64,000 bases of DNA from Euglena gracilis (GCA_039621445.1 CP154954.1:17948589-18012588), one strand, 5' to 3'. Counted from the stretch's first letter, positions 4,030 through 45,883 are shown. The notes: generated by a model from the sequence alone, not told the origin. Made by a program: numbers and translations.

Positions 4030-6416
4030 GCAAAAGGTCGATGCCAATTCAAGCTCATCAACGTTGGACACGGCCACTTTTGAGCTCTTCGGACAGGAGG
4101 TGTGCTTGGTAACGCGAGACAGGCAATCTGCGCCGCCATACAGCCACTGTATTTGCTTGGCTCGGCAGGGATTCAGTGAGTGTTAGTTTTGCACAGGGGG
4201 GATGGTCCAGACCACCCCCTTCAGGGGGGGTCTGGGACCCCCCCCAAACCAAAAATTTTCCTGTGCCCTTCTTTGGCTTTTTTTCGTTCCGGGGAAGATA
4301 AAATTTCGGCACGGCTGCTTTTTCAAAAAGGTGTGAAAAAACGCAATTTTAGGGGGTTTTTAAGCCCCCAAAATTTTCTGGCGCTTCGAAACAGAAAATC
4401 TTTTTTACAGGAGGAGGGCGGTCCCGACGTCCCCCCTCCCTCTGATTCCCTGCCCTTGGAAGGCCGGCAGATCAAAAGAAAAGTATTTCCACCTTGTTTG
4501 GGTGATTTTGTCCTCCAAAGACGCTAGCTCCCATTTGAACTTTAATGAGCGTGTGGTGGGGTTTGCCGTGGTTGACATTCTGTTCAAGAGGCATCATCTG
4601 GGTTGCCGAACCGCCAACCCACCACATGAAATGGACCAATTCTTCTCTGTCCTGCAGTTCAAAGTGGAGAACAAGCCCCTTGGCAGCCCGGACAACCAGG
4701 GCCATCTATGGGTCCCCCAGAATCCAGTTGGTTTTGCCGAGGGCATTCTTCAGAGCCATTCCTCAAAAAAAATTCATGGAAATCTGCTCAAGGGGTAACT
4801 CTCCTCACGCTGTAGATTTTTCAGGACCTGCCCTTCTCTGTTGGCTGTGTTGGTCTTTCGTCGGATTTTTTCCCCCTTTGTTCCCTCTTCTGAATGGGTG
4901 TGGTGGAACTCTTTGGGGGAACTCTTTCCGACCCAAGAGCGTGTGCTGCCGAATGTGTGTTGTCAGTCATTGTTGTGGCCTTGCCCCTGGCTGGCATGTG
5001 GGGGGCATGGTTGAGTTTTTTTTTTGAGGCAAACCTAATTTTTTTTGGTCCAGAAACCCAGAAAATTTCAGATTTTGTGAGGACGATGGAAAATGGGGCT
5101 CCCGTGCACACAGTCATTTATTCAGTGGCCGACCCTGGGGTCGGCCACTGACTGATTTTCCGAAAAAAAAAGTGAGTGGCTGGTTTTTGGAATAGTGGAA
5201 GTGACCCCCGGGGGGGTTGGTAAAAAATTGTGTGGTCCCGTGCCAACCTGCTGGGGGAGATTTTGTTATTTTTTTTCAAAAGAAACCTGGGCCCCCAACA
5301 ACTTTGGTCATTTGCCTTTTTTGACCAAAACAATATTTTCCTTGTGATTTGTATTGGCAAATGGGACATTGGTGCCTTTTTTTTTACACTCAGGTGACTC
5401 ACAAGCCTCTCTGTTTACTTGCTTACATCGTTGTCGAGGAAAAATTATCGAAGATGGGAAAGTGAACATATTTGGTTTGTCATAGAAGTACTCCTTCCCT
5501 GGCTAACGAAGTTTGTCTCCGTACTAACCTATTTTTCCTCGTCGCACTTTTGAGTCACAATCCTTTTCTTTGGCCCTCTTTGGCACACGGTGGCAACTCT
5601 GCTCCTGTCTTTTGTGTCACTGTGGTCCAATAGTAAAGGAGGGGGTGAGGAATTCCAGCCATGCAACGAGGTCCCTGCTAATATCCCAGTGAGCTCCAAC
5701 CGGAAGGGTATCCCGCTTTTCAAGAAGGTGCCCTCGCAGCCTTCGGAGCTGGACGTCAATGAGGTGTGCCTCCTGCCCAGCTCAGGGCTTCCACATGTCA
5801 TGTTTTCCACAGAAATTGTCCCCAGGGCTAGCTTGACCCCCCCCCCAAACTGTTCCAAACCACAGAATGCTGAGGGTTGCAATTGCTTCTCATTTTGGAA
5901 CAACCTCCCCAGGTTTGGGACCAGACCATTGCTTAACACCTGTCCCACCCCACCCCCTGGGGGGGTGACTGACTGGTTTTTTCAGAGTGACTGACTGGTT
6001 TTTTTTGGCCGTGACCCCCCTCCCCCTGGGGGTGGGGTAGGCCAGAAACCACCCAAAAGTGGCTGAGCGGCCAACTGGCACCGAAGGCGCCGGAGAAAAT
6101 TTTGGCCAAAAATGGCCTTGAAAGGCCAAAACGTGACTGGTTTTCCTGAGTGGCCGACCCCCCCCCCCCGGGGGTAAAGTGACTGGCTGGCTTGGCCGAA
6201 AAAAGTGACTGACTGGTTTTTTCGGAGTGGAAAGTGACCCCCCCGGGGGTCTCTAACCAATGGTATGTTTGGGACCCTGTGCTACACTGCGCTACACATG
6301 GCGCCGGGTCAGGGCAATGGTCCCAGCGGAACCTTTCCCCACCAAATGTCCTCCAGACCGATTTCCATCTGGCGCTCAGTGCAAAGACCACTTGGGAGCG
6401 AAAATGCCATGCGTGA
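4030..6416 (+). CDS. 3' part of an unidentified spliced gene (5' exons unresolved)
   Basis: Phase-consistent exons 4030-4099, 4658-4693, 5683-5763 and 6357-6416 (TGA) give ...QKVDANSSSSTLDTATFELFGQE|FKVENKPLGSPD|IPVSSNRKGIPLFKKVPSQPSELDVNE|TDFHLALSAKTTWERKCHA*. There are two GT-AG introns and one CAG/CTG stem intron. No family recognised. Confidence 0.5.
4694..5682 (+). other. nonconventional (euglenid-type) intron
   Basis: C|AACCAGGGCC...GGTCCCTGCTAAT|A. CAG at +4..+6, CTG at -8..-6, Y|R borders; joins in frame. Confidence 0.65.
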
Positions 6417-9400
6417 GGGTCCTATCCGTACAACTGTTTGGGCTCCACAGCCACCAATTTGTCTGCTCAACGCATATATTCGGTGGTCGGATTGTGTGCG
6501 TGGGCATTGAGAGAGAGCATGGACTCGCTTAACACCTGTGTGACCCCACCCCCCCCAGCGGGGGGGGGGGGTGGATTTTCGAGAATGGGCGGGTGATTGT
6601 GAGATGCACAATGGCAACTTTTTGTCCAAAAAGTGCCCAAAAATGGCACCTTTGGCCGATTTTGGGGGGCAATATTTTTCGGCCCGTCACTTTGTGCCAG
6701 GCAAAAAAAATCAGTCACTGCACAGCAGGAGGGGGTGACAGGCATCATTATTTTTGAAGGCGAAAATTTCAAAAATTTTAAGGGGTTTCAAGGCGTTGTT
6801 TTAAGGTTTTTTCAAGGTTTTTTCAGGCAATTTGAAATTTTAAGAAATTTTAAGGCGTCTATTTTCCAAGGGTCTGTCAAAGAGCCATTCGGGCATCGAA
6901 CGAACGTTGGTCAACGTCGAAAATCAAAAAAGAATTCAAAGTGCATTGGTTTGAGTTTTGGGTGGACAGACAATGATGTTTCAGCGATGACAGAATAATA
7001 AATCATATTTTTTTCTCCCCTGGAGTTCACTTTTTTTTGCCAAGACGCCGCGACTTCTTTTTGCTCAAAATTCGAAAAAAATATCTGGTTCGGACCCACC
7101 CACCCCCCGGAGGGGGGACTTGTTGTTGGTGAATGGCCCCTCTCTGCCCCAAGTTGGCCTCCTGGGCTGTTGAAGGTAACTTCGAAAAATTGTTCCCATT
7201 TAGATCAGATGAGCACTTGCTGAAGTTATAACCGGACATTTTTTTAAGGCGCCTAAAAAACCTTTAAAAACCTTCAGAATTTTGTTCTGCAAATCCCCTT
7301 GGGGGGTGAGGGGCAAGGCACAAAGTTAGCCTTGTTTTTGCACAGGGGGAGGGGGGGGAGTCGGACCCCCTTGGAGCCAAATTGTTTTCTTCCCCAATGC
7401 AAAGCGCTGGGGAAGAAAACAATTTGGCTCCAATATATATATTGTATATATATACAATATATATACACACACATACAGGGTATTGTATACAGGTTATTAT
7501 TGTATATATATATATAGATATTCAGGTTATTTTTTAAAATAGAAATCAAAAAAAATGTGCAAAGCTTCACTTTCCCCAATGCGAAGCGCTGGGGAAGAAA
7601 AAAATTTGGCTCCAAGGGGGTCCCAGACTCCCCCCCTCCCCCTAAATAGAAATCAGAAACTGAAACTGAAGCACGATTTTTTTGAGTTTTTTGAGCCCAA
7701 ATTTTTGAGCCAGGTTTTCCTGAACAGGGGAGGGCCACCTCATTTAGTACCCAGGGGAGGTACCCTGTCCCCATTGTTTTATATCTGTGCCTGTGTGCTC
7801 TTGACTGTTCAAGTGAGCTGCATTGACTCAATTTTCAACTTAGGAGCACCTGGAAGAAATTGCCGCAGATGTGCTGAAGTACCAGCGCTACAGCTTATGT
7901 GGGTTTCGCATTGGGAAAAGGCTTGCCACGGGATTGTTGTGGTCTGGTGTGGTACCCCTGCGCCTCATCTGCTATGTCTTTTTTCCCCGCATGTTGGTTT
8001 ATTTTTATGTATATGTCAGTTGTGTTCACAATGTGTTAGATTTATATTCAACTTCTGTGCACCTGCTAGACACGGCAGGAGGATATTCAAGTTGCAATTT
8101 TCATTTCTCTTGTATCCTCCAGAAATCTGAAAATGCTTTTTTTTTGCATCATATAAATCTTGCATTATAAAAATTTGACAACTGGAGGTTGCAGACATAA
8201 TTTGGGTCCAGATTTTTTTTAAAGGTTGGATCCTGGGGGGTTTGGGTGGGTGGGTTTGCTGGACCCCCGGGACACCCCCAGGACCTTGTTGGTCCCCCGC
8301 CGGAGCAGGGTTTTGGTCATTTTTGGCACGAAGCGCCAAAAAAAAATCTTGACCCCAAAATTGACCTGACCCCCAAAAGGTGGGTCCCCGTCCCCCACAG
8401 CCCCCCCCAGAGGGTGGTACCCCCTGGATGGTGGGGGTCCCCGGTCTTATAAATTCCCAGGTGGACAAATTTTGCATTATTCTTGTTGCTCCATCAACAT
8501 AAGTGCATGCATGCAACTGGTCAAATCACTCGTGCCATTATGCAAGTTTGCACGGCTCTTTCTTTTGGTTAATGGCATTTTTTTTGTTGTTGTTTTTTTG
8601 ACTTTTTTTGGCTTTTTCGAAAAAAATCGTGCAAGGTGTTGCTTTGGCAATGGTTTTAATATTTTTAACATAACAAATCCCACCCCACTCATCAACCCCA
8701 ATTTATAAACCCCACTCAACCCCTCCCTCCCGCGCCGACCAAACAAAGCCCGACTTTTAACCCCCACCCCTGGGAAAGAAGAACAAAAGACGCCGGGGAC
8801 AATTTTTGCCGGCTGCGAAACACCCCAAAAACTGATTTTTGGCAATTTTTATGCAAATAACCATGATCAAAAATGCCATTTTTGACAGATTTGCCAAAGT
8901 CTTCAGGAGCTTCCCAGAATTGTTCATTTTTCTTAACTCCTTTGGGAAAACTTTTCACTATGAAACATAAACCCCCCCTCCCCACTTACAAACCCCCTGG
9001 GGCTCCTTGGATCAGGTTTTGTTGGCCAGCCGAAGGGGGCTAAATAAGTGGGGTAGTTTATAAGTCAAGGAATTGTTGGTCAAAATCCTACCCACCAAAA
9101 TGACCTCCTACTCCCCCCGATTTGGCATTCTTTGGAATTACATGCATGCCAACTCACATGCAACTTTTTTTTGCATTTTTTTGCATTTCTTGCATGCATG
9201 TTTTGAGGTGTCTTGTTGCATAATCCCACTCTCTGCTGATGAAGCTGTGCCCCATGTGTTCAGAACAGGTTACAAGTACCCAGCAGGCTCTCTCATCTCA
9301 CACATCCAGGGAGTTGAAATCCTTACGTTACCAGCCAGAATGTGTGCCCTTTCGAACGTCCTGATCCTTGGAACCAAGGAACCCACCTCTGGTGACCACT

Positions 9401-10262
9401 GGTGACCCAGCAAGGTGGTTTTTATGTGGAAATAGGAATGCGTAACCCCCCCTCTAAATACAACCCCCCCCAGGGTTTCTATTTGGGCGATAAGGCAAGG
9501 CCCCCAGGGAGGTTTTTACACAAACATTTGTGTTTTTCGTTGCATTACATTTATTTTTATAATTCGGCGGCTACATTTGGACTGGGGTGAATCAAATATC
9601 CAACGAAAGGCGTATTTGTTTCCCGATGCAGTTTTGCACTGATTGCTTTAAATTCCACTGTTTAAATAAAATTTGCAGCTGGTTACCATTTTTGTTCGTA
9701 TTCATTGCCTAAAAACTGCCACAAAATGGTAAATTTTCAGGGTTTTCCCCCTCCTGGTACCACCCGCATGGCGTCTGTCCAGGTTCTCATTGGGGAATAG
9801 GGGTTGTATTTGGTCACCATCATGCCCCATGGGGGGTTTCAACGGGGGAGGGGTTACACTAAAGGTGTGTAAATTTGGGAGGTTTTCCTCAGTTTGAAAA
9901 TGCAGACTTCTTCAGCAAGGTTGCCAGAAATCCAAATTTTCCCCTGACGTCAATATTTTTTCTGCTGAGAAACTTCGAATTTCCATTTTTAGTTGAATGC
10001 GCTTGGCGGCAGATTTTTTATTTTATTCACTCAAGGGCTGCCCTGGTTTTCAAGCTCACCCACCTCGAAAATTTCATCCCATTGCTTCAGCAATCCTCTG
10101 TTATTCCAGCCTTAAGCGCCTTCTTCGTAGGTTTTTCGGATAGTTTGTTTGTTGACCCAACTTCCAAGCCTCCGGTGAAACGCTGCCTTCCACCCACACC
10201 GCCTGTTGCGGGGACGCCCCCTCCACTCGCACGCCGTCCTCCGTGCCTTGACCCTCCGCCAG

Positions 10263-11074
10263 GGGTGGTACTGGGCCACGTTGGCCAAAACGTCGCCCTC
10301 CCCTCGTTCGCCGACAACCTCTGCCTCAACTGCATGACCTCCACTTACTTCGTCGCCCTGTTCACCGCATGTGCGTCGGTGCTCATCCTGTCGCCGCCGG
10401 GCTTTCGCTCCCACAGTGCGCCGTGTCCACCATACATTGTGATATTTTTCTGTCAGAAAGCTGTAGAGTTGATTTTTCTCCCCCCGGTGCTTTTATGCCA
10501 TGCAAAAGATGTGCTGGTGCCCATCAAACTATTGGCATATTTGATTTATCCATCATCAGAGCTGCAGAGCATGGAACAATGGAACATGTTGGCAACCCAA
10601 AAGCGAATTTTTTTCGATGTTAAACCCAGAGTCTGTTCAAGGAGTTCAAAGTATCCTAAGCAGATATTTTTTTTAAGTTTCGTGACCCGGCGGGGGGGGG
10701 GTGGGTCCCTGGCCGAGCCCCCCCTTTCCCAGGAATGGGTACCCCCAGAGGTTGGGTTCTGTTCTATTTTCCCCGCTTGCACCGACAGAATTTTTTGGAC
10801 CCCAAAATTGACCCTCCAAATGTCCAAGCCCCCCTCCCCGGGGGAGCCCAGCGGGTGGGTGGGTGCGTCTGGAACCCCCCGGGCCTTAAAAACCTCTGAT
10901 CCTGAGCATTAATAACCCAAAGTCAAAAAATCGTCAGGAGCATAACTGTGAGATTGTGTTCAATGTAAATTTGCAAGATGAAGATGTTTGACCAATTTTC
11001 AAAAAAAAGTATCAAGCAAGGCTCCTCTTTGTTTCCTTTTGTTCCAGTGTATGTGTGAATGTGTGTGTATGGAA

Positions 11075-11113
<39 letters not shown>

Positions 11114-14100
11114 CGTGCGCGTGCGTGCGTGCGCGTGCGTGCGTGCATTTGTGTGTGATGGGACCATGTCTCCTGCCCATCTGCATGTCTTCCTCTGTCG
11201 TATGGGGAAACTCTTTGACTGGGAATAAGGCCCCTGCCATTCTTCCTCGTCTGCTTGATCTCCCGGACTAACACCCCGGTGCAGCACCACTCCCACTCCT
11301 CTCTTGCGCTCGTGACACTGCACATGCCCCCCACCCTTTTTGTGGATGGCTTTATTGGGTCCTGGCTGGTTGCCTGAGCCCATTTCATTTCAGAAATGTC
11401 TTTGACTCACTGTCTCCCTGGATTTTTTTTGTTGCCGCCAATCCTCCTCCTGAAGCTGTTGCTAACAGCCCCCCCCCCCCCCTGGGACTAGTCGAGCCCC
11501 CTCCGGGGGGGGGGGTACTGCAAACCCTGAAGCAGAAGCCTGGAACAGATAGCAGAACTTCTGAAACTCATTCTCAAGACCACAAAGGTCGGTACCCCCA
11601 ATGCCAGGGGCTCTCGGAAACCTCGGGTCTGAACATCACACTCGGTGCTGGAGGTGGAAAGCCTGGATACAGACAAAAGCAGCTGTGGAAGCAAAGGCTT
11701 CCATTTTTGTTCCTTATTGCCGTTTGAAGACAAAAGCTGTCACTCAGGCTGCATTTATGTGATCTGATGCTGAAAGTCTGTTCACACACGAGGGGAACAA
11801 TGGAAGGTGGTGGGGTGTTGGGAACATGTTGCCTTCGTGATATTTTTTCTGAGTTCTGTTCAACAAGCCTGAAAAAAACCGGCAAAAATCAGAGAACCCT
11901 CAACCAGAGAAACGTCAGCTATCTTGTTTGCAGGTGCATTGCATCAGTGGAATTCGTTTCTTCTTTTTGCCCAGATGACTTTCCACATAAAAGCTTCTTT
12001 AAAACCAAGGTGCAAGGCACCGGCCTCAATGGCCCCGGGGAAATACACAATCATTGGAAGATGCGATGAGATGTAACTGTTGCACTGCCACAAAAGAGTT
12101 GAAACGCGATGCTTCCGTTTGCGGCGCTTCACCGACCGCCGCTCCCCTTCCCCTGATAGGGAATCATAGCATGGTCGCCATTCCAGCACTCGCCCCAACC
12201 GAAGGGACACACACCGCAGTGCCAGTGCCACGGACGCGGTGGTGGGCTTCCTGTCGGCGTGCGCGCTGCTCATCCGGGCCTACACCGCCCCCAGCAGCAA
12301 GGTCAGCCCGGTGTTCCACCCAGGGGTTCTCTTCCCTTTATCGAATACCGAACGAAATTCGTCGAATGGCTCTTTCGTGTTGACCGGGGTTGAGTTTCAC
12401 CCAAATCACGTGGGCTGCTTCCTGGCAGGAGGGATGGTGGCCCCCCTCCAAGTTGGGTGCGACCCCCGTGGTGCAGGTGGTTAATCTGAACACTGCGCCT
12501 CACCATGGCTGGATCATTGCCTGTCCAAACGTTGCTGGGGAACTCTATCTCACTCCTTTCATGTGAGCTTTGGTGCTGGAGTCCCCTGCGCCTTGCAAGT
12601 GGGTCATCGTTCCGTGACCTGCTGATTTTCGCTGGGCCAAAACGTGTAAATGGAGTAAGAAATTGTGCAGGCCAGGATTGCATTCAGGGTTTTTTTTTAG
12701 TTGTGGACCCCCGGGGGGGGGGGGAGGGGGGGTAGGGTGGGTGGGTCCGGCCGGACCCCCTCAGAGGGGTGTGCCTTTTTTGGCTGGTGGGTTCCCGGCG
12801 CTGAAGGGGCCGGAGAAAAAAATTTTGACCGGCGCCGAGGCGCCAAATTTTTTTGGTATCTTCTTTGCCGCGCCTCTTGTCACAGCCAAAATGTACAAGT
12901 GCTTTTGTGGTTCCATGTTGAAGAATTCTGGACAGTTACAATTTTATTTTATTATCCATCATTATCCATCATTGTGAATGTCATTAAATTTCTCCTTTAA
13001 GTTGTCATATGATTTGGTTTTTTGTTTTTCTTCGAAGCACAACATTACAGCGGCATACACAATTAAACACAAATGAGCATTGCTTTGGTCTTTGCGACAA
13101 TTCCACAGTAAAACACCAGCATTTTCTATGACAACAATGATAACAAAACATTGTAACTGCCGTCAATTTTTTTTTCGATGATTGGCGTGTTTGCTTTGCC
13201 GCGTTCACGTTTCGCAGTGTCAAAAATACCCCCCCCCCCAAAAGTGGGTCCATCGGGACCCCCCCCCTGGGGGGCCCCCAAGGGGTGGGTGGGTGGGTGG
13301 GGGGTACCCCCGGTCTTAAAAAGAACCCTGATTGCATTTTTTTGCTTTTTGTTCTGCCTATCAGCATCCATACTCGCGGGAATGTGGATGCCAATGAATC
13401 ACGGCAAAGCATCATTCCAGGGTTCCGGAAGTTCTCTGTTCTGAAGTGCAGAGGGACTAATGTGCAATTTTCACTTATACCCCACCCCGAAGGAGCGAAT
13501 CTTTGTCCCTAGGCCATTGCCTCCAGTGTCTCCATCTGCTACAGCATCCGACTCCATACGCTCTTCAAGGAGGAGGTATCGTCTGCTTGCTGCCTTTTTT
13601 TTAAGTCCTTGTCACTGCTTTGGGTTTTCAAGCGAAGCCTGGACAAGAAAATGTCCACACAGAAGAAGCGCACGCATGGGAAACCACCTGGCTCTTTTTC
13701 AACCATTTAGGAAACGTAGGTATCGAAATGAAGGCAATCCGCCCCTGCAAAGTTATTTGGGCAGTGCCCTAACCCATTGACAGATTGATGGATCGATTCA
13801 CCACATATCCTCCTATAACCCTTTTCCTGTTCCTTGTGAAGCGGGCAAGTCATTTGGACGGAACTTTTTCAGCTTTCCCCCTGCAAAGTTATTTGGGCAT
13901 GCAAAACTTCAGGGCACTGCACATTTTGTTCGGGGGTTAACTTGAGCACCATCACCGAAATCTGTTTGGAAGTTTTTGAGAAAAATGAACCTTTTCTGAA
14001 CCAGCAAATGTTTCAAATTACAATCGATTTGTTTCTCCATTTCCGCCCAAAAGATAAAGCTTCCCATCATAAAGAGGCCCCTCCAGAGAGAGTTGGAAGG

Positions 14101-17100
14101 TAAAGAAAAATTGGCGGAAAGTTGGAAAGGATGAGAATGAGGCAGTGGGTCCTCTGCCATTTCTTTTACCAGTGGGACCCCTCATCGATGATGCCGAGTG
14201 CTTTGGACGACGTTGAGGCCAAAAAGGTTGGTCCACTAATTTTGCGGGGGGAAACGTTGTTTGGGAGGGGGGGCTAGTGAACTACTTAGGTTTAAACTTT
14301 TTGTGGTGGGGTTGGACTCCTTGTTCCTCAATTGGAAAACATTTGTCCCTTGAGTGTCCCTTTTTCATTATCATTTTCCATTTTGGGTTCCTAGACACTT
14401 GCCAAAATTTCCTGTATGTCATGCTTTTTTTTTTGAATAGCTTCCCACTTGATGTATTGGTGTTTATGTTCGGCCCACGGGTCTGTTACAAAAAATACGC
14501 AGTGTTGTATTCAGGCAGTTTTTTTGGGGGGGCACCCCACCACCCCATCACATTAAAGGAGCAGGAACTCGCCTTGTTTCTCTGTTATCCGAGTCTCCGT
14601 CCCGGCGCCTTCCAACCTTTGCGTGCGCCTTTCCAGTACCTGACGTCCAAAGATGCCATCACGTGCCTCCTCGTGGTGTTTGGGTTGCTGCTGGCGATGC
14701 CCAGGCAGTAGCTCCCCCGCCCAAGGATATTTGTTTTAAAGGTTTGGTGACCCGGTGGGGGGGAGGGAGAGGGGTCCAGAGGGGGGGGGTCGCGCTGGCT
14801 TTCCCTCCATTTTCGGTGCGAAGTTTTTGGCTCATGCAAGCCCTGATTAGGCTGTTGATTAACGGTTTGCAGCACCCCCTGGGGGGGGAGGGGGCTGGAC
14901 TGCAGCTAGTCCAATTTTGGCTGGTGGAAATCCCAGAGGACCCCCCCGGGGGGGGGGGTCCAGTAGCAGAGCTGGCAAGTGGAATTTTTTTTTCCACAGA
15001 GACCGGCACGAAGCGCCGGAAATTTTTTTGACTCCAAAACTTATCAAAATGTCCATTTTGGGCCATTTTTGGAAGAAAGTCAGAAAACATTAAAAGCCTC
15101 ATTTCCACCTCCGGCGCACAGCACCAGGGGAATTTCTTTCTCCCAGCTGGGGGGACCCCTGACCCCCCCAGTGGGAGGGAGGTCTAGTTGGTGGCTTTTT
15201 TCCAGTGTCTATCAAAATGGCGTGCCAGTGGGCCCCCCTGGGTCTTTGAGCCAGGTTGGCCACGGCGTTCGGCAAAGACCATGCGTTGGGTTGGACCCGG
15301 TGTGGTGCTTCAGGGTGGCATTGACCCCGCTTCAGCCCCTTGCTCAACTTTGACCCTCCCAGAGCTTGATCACAATCACCTGAACACCCCCCCCCCCCGG
15401 TCGTGGACAAGGAGAGTCCACGGAGTCCAAAGAGTTACGAGACTTTTTTCAGTAAATTCTTCCTGACACCTGAGGGTGACCTGGAGGGGATGCACCCTGA
15501 GGTATAACCAGAGGTTGGCAGGAAGGTTTTTCAAAAAAGAGTCTTGTAACCCTGTCATCACCATACATCTCTCTAAGGTTTTGCGAACCCCCCCCCCCCG
15601 GGGGGGCGACTGCAGCCAGCCCCGATTTGGGCCCAGCCCAGCCGCAGCAGCCCCCTCCCCCGGGGGGGGGTGCTGCTAGCCCTAGCTAGCCAGCCCCTTT
15701 TTGGGGGTCCAGCCCAAATTTTTTTGAAAAACTGTGTTCAAAAGTGGCCAAAAATGGGGTTTGGGGGGTGTTTGGGGCATTTTTGGGGGGGTTTCAGATG
15801 CATCATTTTTTCAAAACTGTGTTCTGCAGGTCATTTTTGGGCTTTTTTCCGATTTCAGTCCAGCTCGCCCCGGTTCGGGTCCACCCCCCCCCGGGGGGGG
15901 GGGCGGGCTAGCCAGCCCAAATTTCTAGCCCTAGCCCAGCAACCCCCCCCCGGGGTCCTTAAAGAGATGTATGGTCATCACCCACCTCACCAATAGGCAC
16001 GCAGTCCCACCCAGATGTTGCAGCCCCGAGGTTTCCGAATTATGATCCAAACGGTATTTACAATTTCCAAATGAATCATGCAGGAATGAGGTGAATTCAT
16101 GTATTCGTTCCCATATGATGATCCGACGGGATTCAAACACAATGTGTTTTCCTGTTCCTGCCTCAACGCCCCTGGGGTCTGCTAGAGTCCAATCACCCCA
16201 GGGATGGATGGGAAGCCCTTCGGTTATGAGGTAGGTGGTAGGGGGTGGTCCTGACCCCCCCCCCCCCCCGCTGGGGGGTAAGGTGGTAGGGGGGGGTCCG
16301 GACCACCCCCCCCTCGCTGTCAAGAGGGGGGGGGGTCGGACCCACCCCCCCCCGAGCTTCCCATCCATCCCTGAATCACCCACAAGGAACCACACTCTCA
16401 GGGAATTTCTCTTCGCGCCAAATAGAGAGATTGAAAAAATGCTCTTTTTTGTTTTCTTTATTATTTGTCTCAAAAACTTTCGGTTGAGGGATGCCTGTGC
16501 CTGGCAATGATCCCGACGTGGAACGATCCACTGTGCGGCATTGACCGCGGGGTGGTATGGCCGCTCATCTGCCTCTTTGGCTGGTTGCCCAAGACCCTGC
16601 TGAACGTCTTGGAGGAGGTGTGTCCAGCCCTGCCTCTTCAGTCATTGCTCTTTCTTGGGTTTCCATATTGCCTTGTTTTAAAAAAGGACATTTGGCAGTT
16701 TTGCCAAATGTACTTTTTTGCCAAAAAATTTTTTTTGCGGCTCAGCTTTTTTTTGACCCCCTCCCCCAGTGACCCCCCCCCCCACGTGACCTGCAATTTC
16801 GAGTTTTGGCGGGTGGAGGAAGTAAAATTCCCAAGAGGACAAAAAATCCCCTTTCTTGAAAAAGGCCATCCCCCCCGTGACCTGTTGCACCCTCTAAAAT
16901 GGCCATAACTCGTACCAGGCATGGGGGGGGCCAGGTCTCCCCCGTCTGGGGGTGGGGCAAGCTTGCCAGCCCAAATTCCCAGCCCCAGCCCAGCAGCCCC
17001 CCCCCCCCACTGGGGTCCTTGAAGAGATGCATGCCCACCGACACACTATTGGCGGAGCAGTTCAGGCAGAGTGGATTCAAAGATAGTCTCAGCGTGCCCA

Positions 17101-20100
17101 CCAAGCACCTGTGAAATGACTGGGTGTGACTGGGTGTGGCTGGGCGTGACTGGGCATGACTGGGCGTGACTGAGCGTCACTGGGCATGATTGGGATTTTG
17201 CCCACATCTGGCTTCTTCTGGCGTCTTTTGGCCATGTTCGGCCTTTTTTGTCCCGTTTTGTCCGCTTCTGGCTATCTTTGTCCATTTGTGGCCACCTATG
17301 TATATTTTTGCGAGTTTTTGAGCATTTTTTGGCCACTTTTGGCCAAGCTTGGCCTTTTCTGGCACTGGGATTTCTGTGTGACGACTGGGTGTGAGTGAGC
17401 GCGACTGAGCGTGACCGGGTCTGGGATTCTGGATGAGTCTTGGTGCTTGCTGCCTGCCTCCTCCCCACCCCATCCCTTTGGCTCCCGCAGTGGCAGTTCG
17501 TGGGGGTCTGCCAGTCGGACGGCTGGCCGCTGCCCCAGCCCCCCGCCAACACGCTCCCCAACATCATCAGCCTCCTCTTCTGGGTCAACCTCTACGCCCT
17601 CTTCTTCCTCGTCGCCTTCTTCTGGACCGACATGCTCCCAGTCCCTCTGGGTGTGACTGGTCCCATGCAAAGTGGTGTCTGCTGGGCATGCTGCCTTTTG
17701 TGTGTCTGTGTCTCTCCCTGTTCGCGCTGCAGCTTGCAAATGCCAGCAAGCGATTCAGTGACGAAAATATAAGCTGGTGATTTTATTTCGAAAAATCCCA
17801 AACAAATCATATTCTGATGCCAGCCAGCTGTCAGAGATATTTCAACAACTGAACTTTGCTTCAACCAGCAAGCTTTGCTTCTACCCCCCCCCCCCAAACA
17901 TGCGTCCACAAGAGTGTCATGGGCCAACAGAATGGGGTTAGCAAAGGGAGGGCTAATTGGCAGTTTTTTGTACATTTTTGTGGTTTCAATTTTTGGACCG
18001 CAGTCGGGCAGGGTTCGAGCCACTTGGGTGGGTCCCCTGGCTTGGGGGGGGGGGGGAAGGGGGTCAGCCAGCCAGTCCAAATTCTCCAGCCTCTGACATC
18101 CCCTCCCCTTCCCCGCCCTGGGGGTCCTAAGCGACGCCCTGGCCCCGATACGCCGCCGGAGGACACATCCCCGGAGTCTCCTCCTGGGCAGGGATGTGTG
18201 GGAAGCCCTTCAGTTTTGAGGTGGGGGCAACCACCCCTCCCCTCCTGGAGGGGGTAAGGGGGGGTCGATGAGCTCTTATCCCTTTATGGGTAAGAGCGAA
18301 GCTTACCCCTGGGGGAAAACCCCCCCGAACCCCCCCCCCTCCCCCACCCCTCGGGGCCACCTCGGGAACCGGCGGATTATCACCATGATCCCGGCCCCGT
18401 TCCCAAAATTTTTTTTTCAGTCGCGAGCGACTGGATTCCTAGTTTCTGAATCACCTGGGTTTGACCCCCAACTCCCCGCCAGGCCCGAGTTATTCACGCG
18501 CGAAGGGGTCCAAACTGGGTAGGATTGGCCCAACCCCTGGATAACCCCCCCCCCTTCGGACTCTGCCATTTCGGCCAAAAAATGTCAAATTTCAAAATAT
18601 CTCCAAAATGAAGCCAAATCAAAGGAAATGTCCGGAGACCTAATTGAAGCCCTTGGAACACTCCATCTACCGGTATTTTGATTTTCCCACAACTATTCGC
18701 GTAGCCCGAGATACGGCCGTTTTTTCGGCCGATTTTGGCCACTTTGTACACTTTTTCCACTGGTGGACTTAGCCGTTTTCGGCCAAAAAAGGCGAAGATT
18801 TTCGAAAAAAAAATTTTCCCCCCAAAACCATGCTTCTTGGCCTCCCGGACCCGGAAAAAGGGTTTTCGAGCCGCAAATGGGCGTTTTTCAACCATCATGG
18901 CCATCATGACCCGTGATGACCAAGATGCCCATGATGACCCATGATGCCAATCATGGGTCATGATGGGCATCATGGGGCATGATGGCCATCATGACCCATG
19001 ATGCGCATCATGACCCATGATGGCCATCATGCCCCATGATGCCCATCATGACCAAAGATGCCCATCATGACCCATGATGCCCATCATTGGTCATGATGGG
19101 CATCATGACCCATGATGCACATCATGACCCATGATGCAATCATGGGTCATGATGCCCATCATGACCAATGATGGGCATCATGACCAATGATGCCCATCAT
19201 GACCCATGATGGCCATCATGACCCATGATGGCCATCATGAGCAATGATGGCCATCATGACCCATGATGCACATCATGACCCATGATGCCCATCATTGGTC
19301 ATGATGGCCATCATCGGTCATGATGGCCATCATCGGTCATGATGGGCATCATGGGTCAAAAAAGTCGAAAAAAAATCGAAATTTTTTTTTTGCCCGAAAC
19401 GATGTTTTTGGGCCTCCCAAACCCAGAAAAACTGTTTTTGGGCCGAAAATGAGCGTTTTTCGACCCGCCAGCGCCCCGTTTGGGGCTGCCAACCCATTGA
19501 CTTTGGGTCATTTTCAGGTAAAAAAAGTCGAAAAAAATCGATTTTTTTTTGCCCAAAACGATGTTTTTTGGCCTCCCGGACCCAGAGAAACTGTTTTTTG
19601 GGCCGAAAAATGAGCGTTATTCGACCTGCCAGCGCCCCGTTTTGGACCGCCAACCCATTGACTTTGGGTCATTTTTGGGTCAAAAAGTCGAAAAAAATCG
19701 AATTTTTTTGCCCGAAACGATGTTTTTTTGGCCTCCCGGACGGACCCAGAGAAACTGTTTTTGGCCGAAAAATGAGCGTTATTCGACCTGCCAGCGCCCC
19801 GTTTTGGGCTGTCAACCCACTCACTTCCGGTCATTTTTGGGTCAAAAAAGTCGAAACAATCGAAAAAAATTTTTTGCTCAAAGCGCTGTTTTTTTGGCTA
19901 TCCAGACCCAGAAAAGGTGTATTTTGAGCCAAAATGAGTGTTTCTTCACCCCCCAGCGCCCTGTTTCGGCACAAAACCTTTGCATTTCAGTCAACAGAGC
20001 TCCATGGAGTGCACCGGTTTATATGGGGGTGTCAATGAAGGGGTGGGTGAGCGCTTATTAAGAGCTCAGCACTATTCAAAACCTGGTCCAGACCCCCCCC

Positions 20101-22448
20101 CCAGATGTCGGGAGGAGGTGTCCGTACCCCCCCCACTCTCTTTGACAGGTTCCGAAAATAGCGAAAAGCTTTCTTCTGGCGCTCTGCACCAAAAATGCTT
20201 AAAAGGGGAGGGCCCGTATTAAGTTTGGTTTATGTGCAATTCTTTGGCTCTGGTTTGTGCCACAGGGCTGGGGTCCAACTTTGCGGAGTTCCTCTCGATG
20301 ATCCGGGAGTCCCTCTACTGCTACGCCTTCTCCCGGCCGCAGTGCCCCCGCCTGTGCCCCCCGTTGTACTTGGTGGGTGCGAGGTCAATGGAAAATGGAA
20401 GGAGCCTCTCCGCACTCTGTCTTTGTGCATTTTGTTCTGTCTTGCATTTCAACGAACGTTGCATACAGGGCACTGTTCAGGAGAATTTGACCCCATCTGC
20501 CGGGGGTCCAGCCAGCCAGCAGCGTTTTTCCAGCCCCGGACCCCCTCTCCATCGAAGAGTTTTGTTTTCTTTTGCAACGGGCGGCTGGACAGTGACGCAT
20601 TTTTTGGGGGGTGCAAGAATGGACAAAAAAAAATGGGCTAAGTGGGTCGGTCGGTTTGGGCTCGCCAGGGCAAATTTGGTTGGGGTAAAAAAAATCCACT
20701 TTTGCACAATTGGCAGTATTTTGGGTATTTTTGCAGTTCCGATTTTTTGAATCTGGGTTGACCGAAGGTCAGGCCTGGTTCCAGGTGGGGGTGGGGGTGG
20801 GGTGGACAGCGTGGTGGTCATCCATCAGCCTTTTTCCAGCCAGCCCAAACTTTCCAGCCTCCCTTCAGAACTATGCCACTCGGAACACCAGAAGGGTGTT
20901 TGTCCTGCATTCGATCGTGTGTGACTGGGCCACAGATGCACCTGACTGTGTGTGACTTCCTTGGGGGGTTTTTGAGAATGGGTGGGTGGGTTGGGGTCGC
21001 TGGACCTGTCCCTCCCAGGGGCCAGGGGTGGGGTATGCCATAGGTCAGCCTTTGGCCCGGCCGAAGGTTGGGTCAGAAAAATAATTTCAAGGGTTTTCGG
21101 GTGGGTGGTTTTTCTCTCTCTCTCTCTCTCTCTCGAAAATCAGAGGGTGGGTGGGTTTGCACCCAGGAAAAAGTGCCCCCGGGGGGCTCACTAAGTGAAT
21201 CTATGAACCGGGCCATCCATGCAACGGGCCATGCATGCCTGGACTGGGTCACACATCTAAACCGGGTCACGCGTGACCGCAGTGCCCAACCGTTGTCCCC
21301 CCCGGAACGGGGGCACGCCCCCACCTCGCGTTCTGGGCGACCTTCCACGTCCTCACCGTGCTGTGGACGTCTGTCTGCTGCGCCCTGGTGCAGGAGCAGG
21401 TGTTTGCCAAGCTGTCCATGGCGGCGGCCCTCGTGTACGTGCCCCTCAGCGTGCTGGCCTGGATGGGCTACTACCTCCGCCTCTCCAGCTGGCAGGCCTG
21501 CCCCACCCTGTCCCCCCATCGTGCACGCTCTCATTTCGGTGTGAGCATCAGCAGACCAGGGGGTGAATTGGCAATGACCCAAGGTGGAATGGAAAGAAAT
21601 TGGCAGAACAAAATCCCCCAAGTATTTTTCTACCGTTTTTGGCCCATATGATTTTCGAATTTTTTTCCTAGAAATTACCCATATTTTCTATTGCAAAAAA
21701 ATTAGCGAAACAAAACTTTTGCCGAGACTGCCAAATTTTCCATCTGCAGATTTTTTTCATCCAGTTTTCTTTAGCCCCATTTCCCCCGCCCTGTGTTGTC
21801 AATGCCTGATGGGCAGTTGTGCCATTTGGGGTGGTTGCATGAAAGGTGGGAGCCACGTGATGGGTTGCTTTCAGTGAGGGGCTCGTCATCAGGGGGCCAG
21901 CCAGTGTATATTTTTTTGCGAAGTGTGAATGGCGACGGCACTTGTAACAGAGATGGGAGGATGCGAACTCCCCGCGAGCCCTTCCAAAGAATGATTGGGT
22001 GAAATTCCGACCCAACGTGCAGTGTTTCATTTCCCGCCCACCCAGAAGATCAGTGGGCATCCCCTCATGGTTTAAAGCACAAATGTGGTATGTGCGTTGA
22101 ACAAGGATGCTGGGACATTTTTTTTTGCTTCCCCCCCCATTTAAGTGCACAGGGTGTGCTCAGTTTTGGACCGTTGTTTCGGGCCCTCAAGGGTGCGCGC
22201 TTTCTTTGTGGCACTATGGTGTGCCACAAAGTTGTGCACTTTTTTGGATTTCACTTCGGTGGGGTGACTGCGCTCAATTTTGGGGTTAGACCTCATATAG
22301 CACAACCAGAACAATCGCGATGTGGTCATTTTTGCGTCGATGCGCCATATGCTTTTGCTTCTGCTCAGGCAGTGGTGCCCACGTTGATGGTGTACATGTG
22401 CGCCCTCGTCCCCATCTTGACCGCCGTGGCAATGCATGGCCTGCTCAG
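10263..22448 (+). CDS. CRT-like (chloroquine-resistance-transporter homolog, DMT superfamily) multi-pass membrane transporter, spliced; both termini uncertain
   Basis: Exons ~10263-10370, ~12227-12317, 13511-13575, 14637-14698, 16509-16617, 17491-17650, 20266-20349, 21323-21495 and 22369-22448. Hydrophobic peptides GHVGQNVALPSFAD, KVSPVFQAIAS, LLFWVNLYALFFLVAFFWTDMLP and VYVPLSVLAW resemble CRT-homolog motifs as I recall them (no search run). Possible extra exons lie near 9270-9370, 11-12 kb and 22970-23030. Confidence 0.65.
10661..10898. mobile_element. hAT-like MITE with 8-bp TSD
   Basis: CAGA..TTTTAAG / CTTAAAAA..TCTG ends; flanks ATCCTAAG / ATCCTGAG (7/8). Confidence 0.7.
12318..13510 (+). 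other. nonconventional intron
   Basis: C|ACCCAGGGGTTCTCTTC...GGAGCGAATCTTTGTCCCT|A. Long terminal stem with G-U pairs; yields KVSPVFQAIAS. Confidence 0.7.
12685..13330. mobile_element. hAT-like MITE with 8-bp TSD
   Basis: CAGGGTTTTTTTT / AAAAAGAACCCTG TIR; perfect TSD ATTGCATT. Confidence 0.85.
15562..15973. mobile_element. hAT-like MITE with 8-bp TSD
   Basis: CATACATCTCT..AAGG / CCTT..AGAGATGTATG TIR; perfect TSD GTCATCAC; internal GCTAGCCAGCCC motifs. Confidence 0.85.
16199..16373. mobile_element. hAT-like MITE with 8-bp TSD
   Basis: 18-bp TIR CAGGGATGGATGGGAAGC; perfect TSD AATCACCC; a related end lies at ~18189. Confidence 0.9.
18893..19352. repeat. degenerate CATGATGCC/CATGACC minisatellite
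   Basis: Dozens of CATGA-based units are directly visible. Confidence 0.9.
19353..19980. repeat. ~160-bp tandem repeat, about 4 copies
   Basis: GGTCAAAAAAGTCGAAAAAAATCG recurs at ~19353, ~19517, ~19678 and ~19839. Confidence 0.85.
20350..21322 (+). other. nonconventional intron (junction ambiguous)
   Basis: C|GCCTGTGCCCCCCGTT...AACGGGGGCACGCCCCC|A stem; yields RPQCPHLAFW. An alternative AG acceptor lies at 21282. Confidence 0.6.
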
Positions 22449-23525
22449 GTGGGTTTTCGGCTTTCTGGACCAAATGGCTCTCATGTCCGCAAATCCTTTC
22501 TTCTATTCTTCTGTTCTGCTATTTTTTTAACCAATTTTTATCTTGTGTGTGCATGATATTTCAATGGTTTTCTCGTGCAAATAGTTTAAGCTCTTTTCAG
22601 CTTCTAAGAAGTGTCAAAAACTTAAAGTTACGCGACAACTAACCATTTTCTGTCTGCGAATATGGATAATTCTGCAGCCGGCAGGCACACAATGAGAGAC
22701 AAATGATGGGCCCAAATCCTCAACAGGTAATTTTTTCCCAAACGTCATACTAGAGCCCTCCCCCCCCCCCCCGGACTGGCTTACTGCCCCCCCTGTGTCC
22801 GACTCGGGCCTCTGCCAGCTTTGCTGTCGGGCAAACCACCATTGGCTGCCTGGACCGGGCTATGACCGATGACCGCTACCTCCACACCTGACCCTCTCAC
22901 CTCTGGCCTCCTCACCTCCTCACCTTTCACCCCGCATGATTGTAGGCCCTTGCCTTCTTTGCCTCGCAGGCGTTTTCCACCCTGCTCATTCATAGTGCAC
23001 ATTCGGCGGTGTGATCGGTGCACCCCTTGACATTTTCCAGAAGGGCTCATTGTCGAAGGTGCGAAGCAGGTAATCGTACGTAGAAGCTGTGAGAAGCCTG
23101 AGAGGCCTGGAACTTCAGGATGCTTTTGTCAGCATTTTGCTTCGTTTGACCCGTATGGGTGTGGGGTGACAGTGAGGGGGATGTGCGGGGCATGTTTGGT
23201 GTGACAGTGGTGGGGGGAGTGTGGGGGGGGGGTTTGGAAATTCCTGGAAAACCGACGTGTGAGAAGCGTCATTCACACCAATATTAACCATCAGCATCAT
23301 GCACGACATCAGCAAAACTGGACTTGAGAACGGTCCAAAAAAAAACCTGGCATACAAAGGACATTTGTGCCTGACCTTGCACAGGGAAGGATGATGCTGT
23401 TTTTGTTCTGGGGGGTTGGCTGGGGCCAGGCGAAGCCGAAGGCCGAGTAAGTCAAAAATGGCGTCAAAAATTTGCCCACCAAAGTGATTTGTGTGCCCAA
23501 AAATTGGCATTCATTGAGGTCGAAG

Positions 23526-23770
23526 CAGGCTTTTTTTTTTAAGCTCAGAAGACCCCCCCCCCCCCCAGGGGGAGGGGGGTGGGTGGGTGGGTCCAGGGCT
23601 GGACCCCCCAAGGGGGGGGATCCTGGGCCGTAGGCCTGGGTCTGGGTTTCGGCGCGAAGTGGCGCAATTTTTTTTTTTGGGAAATGGCCTCAGAGCACCC
23701 GATTTTTGGGGGGTCCCGCACCGGGCTTGGTGGGTGGGGGGACCCCCGGGGTCTTAAAAAGAAAAGCCTG
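23526..23770. mobile_element. hAT-like MITE with 8-bp TSD
   Basis: CAGGCTTTT..TTAAG / CTTAAAAAGAAAAGCCTG; perfect TSD GGTCGAAG. Confidence 0.9.
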
Positions 23771-24954
23771 GGTCGAAGTGGGGGGGGGTGTTGGGGGGTG
23801 TTGGAGGGGATGTGGAGGTGTGTGGGGTCTGTGGGGTCCTGTGGGGGCTCCACTTTAAGCCACGCAGCCTGCATTTCTATTTCACATTTTTTTTCGCATT
23901 TCATATTTTGATGTGCTTTTTGCATTGCCCTCCTCTGGTTAATGAAAAGCCAACACCGACACCATCCCACGACACTCTGGACCCGCCCAAGTTTGGGACC
24001 CAACCTTTGGGCTGCAGATTTGGCTCCATACTGTCATTATGCCTAAAGCACCCCCCACCCCGGTCCACAACAAACGGCATGCCCCACATCTACACATACG
24101 AGTTGGGGTGTGCCGACATGAATCCTCGGCATACATAAATATAATATGCATACACAGGCTCACCCTCGCTGCTCTGGTATTTTCCTGCACTTAAAAGGTG
24201 ACTGCAGATGCAGTAAATCCGCATATTGTCGGCTGAGGTTGGAGGCCCCTCTGGGGGTCGATTTCTGAACGCCCAGGCAGATGCTGAACAACCACACACA
24301 CACGCGCGCGTGCGCGCACACACCACTTACACACAGCATGCGAGTACACACACATCATTCCAGTTTACCTTCACCTGCTTTTGATTCCAGAAAAAAATAT
24401 ACAAAGACAACTCCCTGCCTCCACCTCCCCTCTGGAGTCATTTCGGTCGTCTCCTGGTGCACAGGAGAACAGATGGTTCGAGGTTCGAATGTTCCCATGT
24501 CATCATTTTAGTTCACGGAGGCAAGATCGGCAGAATCCAGGCTCCAACCAAGCTGCCATGCCAAACTGCACCACCTTTTAGGAGCTCCCCAATCAGCCAG
24601 CGAACGCACCCTACAGTCGCCTCCTGTCAACCGGCGATGCATCCGCTGTGTACGTTCGATGTGTGTCACCGTTACACATTGAACGCTCAGCAGCCCCTGT
24701 GGCATTGCTCAACACCCCTGCTTTCCCTCTGAACGCACTTCCCATTCCCACTTCCATCCCGACTGACGATCGTCAGCACAGCGTTGCGAGCCCAATGTCC
24801 ATAATATTTTTTGCTTGATTTGATTTTTGATGATAATGATTGGACGGCATGAACGCTCACAGCCACATTCTGACTTCCTGTGCATCGTTCTGGCAAACTC
24901 ATCATATCTGTAGCAACAAGGAGGTGCGTTGGATTAATCAGAAAATTAACTGTT

Positions 24955-44700: not shown

Positions 44701-45833
44701 GCAGTTTCGATTCTTCGGTTCGACCCTGGGTCAGGCCCAGGTCCAGCCGGGGAACCCCCATGGGGTGCCCCAGTGCCCCAGGTGGGGGGTTTTCAAGCCA
44801 GCCCAACCAGGCTTCTGCTTAAGGGATTGCAGTACCCCCGGGGGAGGGGCTGGACTGCAGCTAGTCCAAATTTGGCTAGTGGGATTTCTAGCAGACCCCC
44901 CCTGGGGGGGGTGCTCTGCTAGCAGGGCTAGCAAGTGGAAATTTTTTTGGGGACCCCCAAAAATGGCCTAAAATGCCCATTTTTGGCCATTTTTGGGAAT
45001 TTTTGGAACAAAATCAGCCAAAAACCTATTAAAAACCTCATTTCCACCTCGGTGCGCAGCGCCGGAGGAAATTTTTTTTTTTCCAGTTCGGGGGACCCCC
45101 GGACCCCCCCCCCCCCCCCGGGGGGGGGGGGGGGGGGCTAACTAGTCCATTTTTTCCAGTGTCTAGGTGTCTAGCCGATTGGCTAGCCAGTACCCCCCCC
45201 CCCCCGCCCCGGGTCCTTAAGCAGAAGCCTGAGCCCAACCTTTTTCCAACCCCAGAACCGGGCCTCCCTCCCCCCGGTGGTCGCCAAGCGGCCCGGCCTA
45301 CCAATGGTTTCCGTCCGAACCTTCAGGAACGTTGAACTGAGGGAACGTTGAACGTTTGCTGAAGGAGTGTTGCAACCATTGCACCCGCCCACCATTCCGT
45401 TACCTCGGCATGCTCATTGGTAGGCCCCGTTGTGTTTGTCGGGTGGTTCCTCCCGGGAAGGCTCGTACCGTCACCAGCCCCCCCGCCCCCCCCCCCCCCG
45501 GCTGTTTGAGTCAATTTGCCCCCACATATATAACACACACTTTTTTTGACTCCCCTGGAGGCCACCCCTCCCCTGGCCATGCCCTCCTGCCACTGCCTCT
45601 CGACTGGTGCTCGGACTGTGCCGCGCCCGCCCTCCCCCGGCCCAGGACCACTGGCGGCTGGCGCACGAGGGGCTGTCGGTGGTCCGCCCGCACCTGCCGG
45701 CGTACCGGACGTTGCCCGTGGCCCGCGGGGACGCGGTCGCCCTCATCCGCAGCAAGGAGGGCAAGCTGCCGGTGTGAAATTTGCTTTCTTTGTGTGCGGT
45801 ACATGGGCACTTTTTTGTTTCCACGGGCTGTTA

Positions 45834-45883
<50 letters not shown>

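Follow-up and report, generated by a model that had tools for sequence, protein, structure and literature searches.

Transposons that fit the nonconventional splicing code inside introns of Euglena gracilis genes: probable passengers, possible nested introns

When a transposon whose ends read like a nonconventional intron lies inside another intron, is it removed from RNA on its own, or does it leave with its host? This question is raised twice by a 64,000-nucleotide stretch of Euglena gracilis DNA (GCA_039621445.1 CP154954.1:17948589-18012588; "the window" hereafter means this whole stretch), in which a MITE (miniature inverted-repeat transposable element) at 12685-13330, here MITE 1, lies within a nonconventional intron of one gene and a related element, MITE 2, lies within a conventional GT-AG intron of a second gene. 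The window is euglenid nuclear DNA; two of its exon translations match E. gracilis transcript-derived proteins at 100% identity. An earlier note on this DNA had suggested that the first arrangement is a possible nuclear twintron. We consider it probable, if well short of certain, that both MITEs are passengers which leave together with their host introns, and that separate excision, although possible, is incidental. The more solid result is a by-product: MITE anatomy mirrors the nonconventional splicing code, which supports the hypothesis that these introns originated from MITEs.

Direct- and inverted-repeat detection resolved MITE 1 at 12677-13338 as ATTGCATT^CAGGGTTTTTTTTTAG...CTTAAAAAGAACCCTG^ATTGCATT (a caret marks a border here and below), i.e. 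a 646-bp element between two copies of a perfect 8-bp target-site duplication (TSD; 12677-12684 and 13331-13338, 8/8), with terminal inverted repeats (TIRs; CAGGGTT...AACCCTG) matching at 14 of 16 positions. Between its CAG...CTG termini, which are alignable with other copies, it has subterminal parts rich in G/C homopolymers and an AT-rich, low-copy core. The depth of a DNA contig set (X16) was 60465 and 7956 over the two ends and 208-1145 over the core, cf. about 45 over unique DNA, placing the ends at 100-1000 times unique depth, as expected of a multicopy MITE. A 10-nt direct repeat, CTTTGCCGCG (12863-12872 and 13194-13203), bounds the core, which may be a second-order insertion within the MITE or an internal duplication. 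An Rfam scan of 10000-17000 gave two sub-threshold matches, neither inside MITE 1.

MITE 2 (44808-45231, 424 bp) has the same architecture, reading AGCCCAAC^CAGGCTTCTGCTTAAGG...CCTTAAGCAGAAGCCTG^AGCCCAAC at 44800-45239, with a perfect 17-nt TIR (CAGGCTTCTGCTTAAGG; 17/17) and the TSD AGCCCAAC at 44800-44807 and 45232-45239. A third intact MITE (16199-16373, 175 bp; TSD AATCACCC, TIR 16/16) lies within the nonconventional intron 14699-16508, and a fourth (23526-23770, 245 bp; TSD GGTCGAAG, TIR 15/16), which belongs to the same terminal family as MITE 1 and MITE 2, lies between the stop of the first gene (22888) and the start of the second (26612), possibly in a 3' untranslated region. A scan of the window for elements 60-3500 bp long that run CAG...CTG, with TIRs matching at ≥12/16 positions and flanking 8-mers at ≥6/8, yielded five candidates, four of them with perfect 8/8 duplications, whereas the same scan of ten block-shuffled windows returned no perfect duplication and three candidates in total at ≥6/8. 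The termini of the copies at 12685, 23526, 44808 and 59935 align as CAGG[G/C]TT..T..TAAG followed by G/C runs, and partial copies related to MITE 2 were found at 14849-15169, 59935-60254 and 11511-11542. That there is no transposon here at all, only chance resemblance or an assembly artefact, could be argued from the G/C homopolymer runs, which are hard to assemble and inside which X16 contigs break; the shuffled windows, the shared termini and the presence of both MITE 1 junctions in X16 DNA (whose independence from the source of the window is uncertain) make this explanation extremely unlikely.

The elements have the features by which MITEs are recognized: TIRs, a TSD of fixed length, small size (175-646 bp), many copies and no coding capacity. 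The 46 open reading frames (ORFs) of at least 170 aa in the window matched no Pfam family, hence no transposase, and none lies wholly inside MITE 1 or MITE 2. The four elements are real high-copy, non-coding transposons with 8-bp TSDs. Members of the hAT superfamily make 8-bp TSDs and have short TIRs with a characteristic end motif; other superfamilies also make 8-bp TSDs. The CAGGG ends of the 12685 and 16199 elements fit the hAT end motif and the CAGGC ends of the 23526 and 44808 elements do not fully fit it, so that "hAT-like" is used here in the sense of TSD length, without a superfamily being established. The TIR of the third MITE is CAGGGATGGATGGGAAGC, the start of which we take to resemble the ends of maize Ac. 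A literature search found no report of hAT MITEs in Euglena.

Three of the four intact MITEs lie in introns and one lies between genes; none coincides with an intron that interrupts an exon. The introns of both genes hold further MITE copies or fragments and segments of very high copy number by X16 depth, and intronic location is therefore the norm for MITEs in this window. One fragment, at 11511-11542 (32 nt, 94% identical to the MITE 2 end), sits in intron 11306-12235. It is matched by RNA reads and by one RNA contig over its own length only, and these continue into unrelated sequence beyond both its sides, which indicates that MITE-end copies are transcribed at other loci.

How closely do these elements follow the splicing code? 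Nomura et al. 2025 defined the code of Euglena nonconventional introns genetically as 5'-N3CDG at one end and CH'GN5-6^R at the other (PMC12501133): the length of the 5' spacer is strict, 5-6 nt are permitted on the 3' side, no nucleotide is required at the donor-side exon end, pairing beside the code motifs is required, and fully synthetic 50-bp sequences carrying only the code features were spliced in exon context. Both MITEs have N3-CDG, CH'G-N5-6, complementary middle bases and base pairing beside CAG/CTG. From sequence and the published code, an inner intron is predicted on the plus strand at 12682-13335 for MITE 1 (ATT-CAG...CTG-ATTGC^A) and, from sequence only, at 44805-45236, also plus, for MITE 2 (AAC-CAG...CTG-AGCCC^A). 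The earlier note had read the first as C^ATT-CAG...CTG-ATTGC^A inside a nonconventional intron and the second as C^AAC-CAG...CTG-AGCCC^A inside a GT-AG intron, and both readings are correct, the first host being validated by RNA and protein and the second confirmed by protein P0003. Its further statement, that both borders are perfect pyrimidine/purine borders at consensus positions, stands for the positions, which fit the code; the two borders of an element are not two observations, being one dinucleotide duplicated by the TSD.

The code fit is nearly automatic, because CAG and CTG are the transposon termini and N3 plus N5 equals the 8-bp length of the duplication. The sole free element is the purine at TSD position 6, which follows the 3' cut: it is A in MITE 1 and MITE 2 and a purine in three of the four intact MITEs, the exception being the third, which has a pyrimidine (C) at this position on the plus strand. 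Since the 3- and 5-nt spacers sum to the TSD length, removal directed by the code would restore the empty site exactly; this arithmetic holds for the TSDs of all four intact MITEs (12677-13338, 16191-16381, 23518-23778 and 44800-45239). No statement that the spacer sum equals TSD length was found in passages of the cited literature. Milanowski et al. 2016 (PMC4770533) reported eight-nucleotide direct repeats at a nonconventional intron that E. agilis had gained recently, and this repeat length agrees with the 3+5 geometry. Among the mapped introns of the two genes, the six that conform to the code have corresponding 8-mers that match at 4, 5, 3, 4, 0 and 3 positions, only a slight excess over the chance expectation of 2.

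Are the host introns themselves secure? For the segment 11200-16200 alone, raw-read RNA runs carrying the same species label (X17 and X21), RNA contigs (X1) and the X16 DNA contigs were placed on the window, giving 15 listed splice joints and 88 further ones; statements on joints refer to those listed. The host of MITE 1 is a nonconventional intron of 1193 nt at 12318-13510 on the plus strand (ACC-CAG...TTG-TCCCT^A), identified by an RNA joint and a protein junction. Joint 12317->13511 was seen in two X17 reads, six X21 reads and one X1 contig (depth 37.5) and not in X16 DNA, and the preceding joint 11305->12236 in three X17 reads, eight X21 reads and an X1 contig (depth 37.5), again not in X16 DNA. 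A single X1 contig unites 11236-11305, 12236-12317, 13511-13573 and 14635-14699. The upstream exon (12236-12317, plus), a piece of this contig bounded by the two joints, matches residues 183-208 of P0001 exactly, and the downstream exon (13511-13575, plus; contig piece 13511-13573) encodes residues 210-230 and is followed by a GT-AG intron at 13576-14636. Across the junction the protein reads ...KVSPVFQAIASS..., which leaves 12318-13510 and 12319-13511 as the only border options. The spacing of this intron is correct, but its 3' end has TTG-N5 instead of CTG-N5. A GT-AG reading (GT at 12302, AG at 13512) was rejected, as RNA and protein include the 18 nt that it would take out. Descent of the host intron from an old copy within the MITE family was set aside: at its terminus some 11 of 13 bases are similar to the MITE right end, a weak hint, and the rest is unalignable. 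The host of MITE 2 is confirmed at the protein level as a conventional GT-AG intron of the NSUN2-like gene (44382-45645, plus; GTGTGG...CCCAG; P0003 junction ...KGKA^DHWRL...).

With both hosts in place, a MITE could be removed before, with or after its host. MITE 1-only removal would create joint 12681->13336, and pairing between MITE and host ends would create 12317->13336 or 12681->13511; neither the first joint nor the two cross-junctions were among the 15 listed for X17, X21 and X1, at an intronic RNA depth of at most about 3 reads. Over the host-intron flanks this depth reached 2.74 reads (X17, bin 12536-12702) and was mostly below 1, and thus the RNA data have no power for a minority intermediate, either way. 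The data speak neither for nor against separate excision of MITE 1 from host-intron RNA. Within the host intron, X1 has two contigs of 151 nt (12364-12514 and 12530-12680), which represent RNA that contains the intron or carried-over DNA; the second ends at 12680, beside the predicted inner 5' cut, and this end, as a single fragment, was given no weight.

The position of MITE 1 bears on whether its removal must come first. The predicted inner intron begins 364 nt from the 5' end of the host and ends 175 nt from its 3' end, and the host terminal stem (12321-12338/13489-13505) is intact, not interrupted by the MITE. Inner-first excision is not required, because MITE 1 leaves the splice signals of the host uninterrupted; the suggestion of a nuclear twintron does not hold in the strict sense, with the MITE away from the host's terminal stems. 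A search of the literature, supplements excepted, turned up no euglenid case of nested nonconventional introns or of a nuclear twintron. The word "twintron" in PMC3935182 and PMC4770533 was set aside, occurring once in each as a reference-list entry on plastids.

Timing would set the opportunity for separate excision. Conventional introns reportedly leave first and nonconventional ones later, the latter possibly post-transcriptionally (PMC6221363), and therefore MITE 1 should have greater opportunity than MITE 2. Nonconventional introns, once excised, have been reported as circles (as cited in PMC11282704).

Pairing of ends was compared between MITEs and mapped introns by joining 20 nt from each end with U7, following the approach of PMC11170887. 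This gave -16.2 kcal/mol for MITE 1 and -27.0 for MITE 2 (-32.6 and -20.3 for the other two intact MITEs), cf. -11.5 to -18.9 kcal/mol for the seven nonconventional introns and -0.6 to -9.2 for the seven conventional introns of the first gene. In partition-function folds, the terminal stem of MITE 1 had a probability of about 1.0 alone and 0.38 in the exon-intron-exon RNA, whereas that of the host intron was about 0 with or without MITE 1. The host 5' end, CAGGGGTTC, can also pair with the MITE 1 3' end, GAACCCTG, at -8.8 kcal/mol in a 10-nt and -9.3 in a 20-nt test, cf. -3.3 and -11.8, respectively, for the host's own ends. On this pairing MITE 1 might act as a splice decoy, the two cross-junctions then yielding aberrant or regulated isoforms, and "overlapping" alternative splicing has been reported in E. 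gracilis (PMC11170887). We think this very unlikely: 12317->13511 is the only joint listed for the host intron in all three RNA sets, P0001 carries the normal junction, and an mRNA that kept 13336-13510 would be 175 nt longer and frameshifted. From the competition of the MITE right end for the host 5' end we infer that prior removal of MITE 1 is of conceivable benefit.

A rival explanation that deserves more weight is true nested nonconventional splicing, in which the machinery would recognize the CAG/CTG stem of MITE 1 within the unspliced host, so that a sizeable fraction of transcripts would lose 12682-13335 as a circle before anything else, leaving a 539-nt host remnant to be removed later, and MITE 2 might be removed either from pre-mRNA or from the excised lariat of its GT-AG host. 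The evidence for it is also what weighs against our preferred reading. By every known cis-criterion applied to sequence, the host intron is no better a substrate than the MITEs: MITE 1 and MITE 2 satisfy each published cis-requirement no less well than the CAG...TTG host, with a full N3-CAG...CTG-N5^A fit and terminal energies within (MITE 1) or beyond (MITE 2) the validated range, and the stem of MITE 1 is favoured in pre-mRNA context over that of the host. Moreover, the synthetic introns of PMC12501133 were spliced on code features, the late removal of nonconventional introns (PMC6221363) leaves time for inner processing, and early removal of MITE 1 would clear a decoy whose right end, over 10 nt, pairs more strongly with the host 5' end than the two host ends do with each other. 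That the elements are never excised separately is not the expectation, and intronic RNA depth is far too low to exclude separate excision. On the other side stand the absence of 12681->13336 from the joints listed, the published tests, whose introns were all set within an exon at a single locus, the near-automatic code fit of this MITE class and, for MITE 2, a conventional host of a type reported to leave first. We regard nested splicing as a serious but doubtful possibility. Equally tentative is the broader proposal that the machinery excises, as circles, all transcribed MITEs of this class regardless of their location, MITE 1 and MITE 2 included.

The reading of the MITEs as passengers is preferred because four perfect-TSD elements were found in the window and none in ten shuffles, with host introns mapped by RNA or protein; because MITE 1 lies outside the terminal stem of its host and MITEs in introns are the norm here; and, at low power, because no MITE-only joint was among those listed for two RNA runs and one contig set. 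A non-autonomous, hAT-like CAGG...CCTG transposon with an 8-bp TSD would have inserted mid-way into the pre-existing nonconventional intron 12318-13510 of a putative E. gracilis membrane-protein gene, and a relative (44808-45231) into the GT-AG intron of the NSUN2-like gene. Mature mRNA would need only removal of the host intron, which RNA shows at the predicted borders for 12318-13510; the fit to the code would come from MITE anatomy, and removal by the code would recreate the pre-insertion sequence. The elements are probably competent substrates, and separate loss of the MITE may occur in some pre-mRNAs or in circles of the excised host intron, any such excision being presumably incidental rather than an obligatory twintron step.

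MITE-less RNA, if any occurs, might instead derive from DNA, from an empty-site allele or from somatic cells. To judge by its perfect TSD and near-perfect TIR, the element is fairly young and possibly mobile to this day, and in the flanks X16 departs from the window at several places (26 nt inserted after 13698, and several single-base differences at 11641-11881 and 13474-13488 in unique intronic DNA), differences that are allelic or strain variation. Against this, X16 contigs 11513-12713 and 13275-13893 span both junctions between flank and MITE 1, no empty-site joint was among the DNA joints listed, and no transposase domain was found among the ORFs described above, which leaves polymorphism or excision at the DNA level very unlikely as an explanation.

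The two genes were mapped by exact matches to transcript-derived proteins. Gene 1 (4031-22888, plus; stop at 22888) encodes P0001 (EukProt EG_transcript_7539, 480 aa; residues 1-18 unmapped), in which no Pfam family was found by a search of the protein and which appears by eye hydrophobic and multi-pass; P0002 (465 aa, from another source) is a relative, 89% identical across a 42-aa query stretch. Its 14 mapped introns comprise seven conventional (six GT-AG and one GC-AG) and seven nonconventional, three of which fit the published code (4694-5682, 14699-16508 and 22443-22800) and four, including the host of MITE 1, not strictly. Gene 2 (26612-48300, plus; about 21.7 kb) encodes P0003 (EG_transcript_4336, 737 aa), whose RsmB/F methyltransferase and NSUN2 pre-PUA domains (Pfam PF01189 and PF25376) mark an NSUN2-like RNA cytosine methyltransferase; it has at least 24 introns, the 24 gaps mapped being 17 conventional, six nonconventional (three code-conforming, three other) and one unresolved.

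Some of these introns depart from the code in their own ways. Intron 20344-21322 of gene 1 lacks CAG/CTG, has the 6-nt direct repeat GCCCCC at both junctions (seven equivalent border positions) and inverted ends GTGCCCCCCG/CGGGGGCAC, and appears to represent another class of nonconventional intron with transposon-like features. Intron 34460-35222 of gene 2 (GCC-CAG...CTG-TTGA^G) has a 3' spacer of 4 nt, outside the published 5-6 nt. Microsatellites of (GT)n type lie at 11047-11157 (intron 10393-11235, gene 1) and at about 45840-45900 (intron 45772-46181, gene 2).

Where euglenid nonconventional introns come from, and by what mechanism they work, are open questions; the proposal that they arose from MITEs dates from 2013, at a time when euglenids had no known transposons (PMC3935182). 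Here, intact MITEs reproduce the experimentally defined code exactly, beside validated introns of the same geometry with decayed duplications, and the MITE-origin hypothesis is concretely supported because intact MITE ends together with an 8-bp TSD recreate the splicing code. The question is also sharpened: either the machinery depends on exon context, in which case MITE 1 is an ordinary intronic transposon, or it acts on any such element, including those nested in introns. If the latter is true, nested excision should be found widely, as should circular RNAs derived from MITEs; intronic and untranslated-region MITEs would form a large hidden class of substrates, and nonconventional splicing would amount to RNA-level "transposon excision", its 3+5-nt geometry mirroring the 8-bp TSD and restoring the empty site.

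Compared with known systems, the elements resemble hAT MITEs in their 8-bp TSD, 16-17-nt TIR starting CAGG, lack of coding sequence, size of 175-646 bp and high copy number; on the other side, no transposase was found in the window, and MITE 2 and the 23526 copy start CAGGC, off the hAT motif. Twintrons (Euglena plastid group II/III introns and fungal stwintrons; PMC3534033, PMC12403724) likewise have an intron-like element within an intron, but there the inner intron breaks up a functional part of the outer intron and sequential splicing is obligatory and demonstrated, whereas here the inner element is far from the host ends. In introners (PMC11282704), as predicted here, DNA transposon ends and the duplication provide splice signals for precise removal from RNA; introners use the spliceosome and GT/AG-type sites, whereas the present elements carry non-spliceosomal-looking euglenid signals and occur as intronic or intergenic rather than exonic copies. 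The closest comparison is with Euglena nonconventional introns (PMC12501133; Milanowski et al. 2014/2016 consensus), with which the MITEs share CAG at +4 to +6, CTG at -8 to -6, a purine after the 3' cut and paired ends with energies in or beyond the range validated in gene 1. Unlike these introns, MITE 1 lies inside another intron and interrupts no exon, its excision is predicted only, and it keeps a perfect 8-bp TSD where the six mapped code-conforming introns match at 0-5 of 8 positions.

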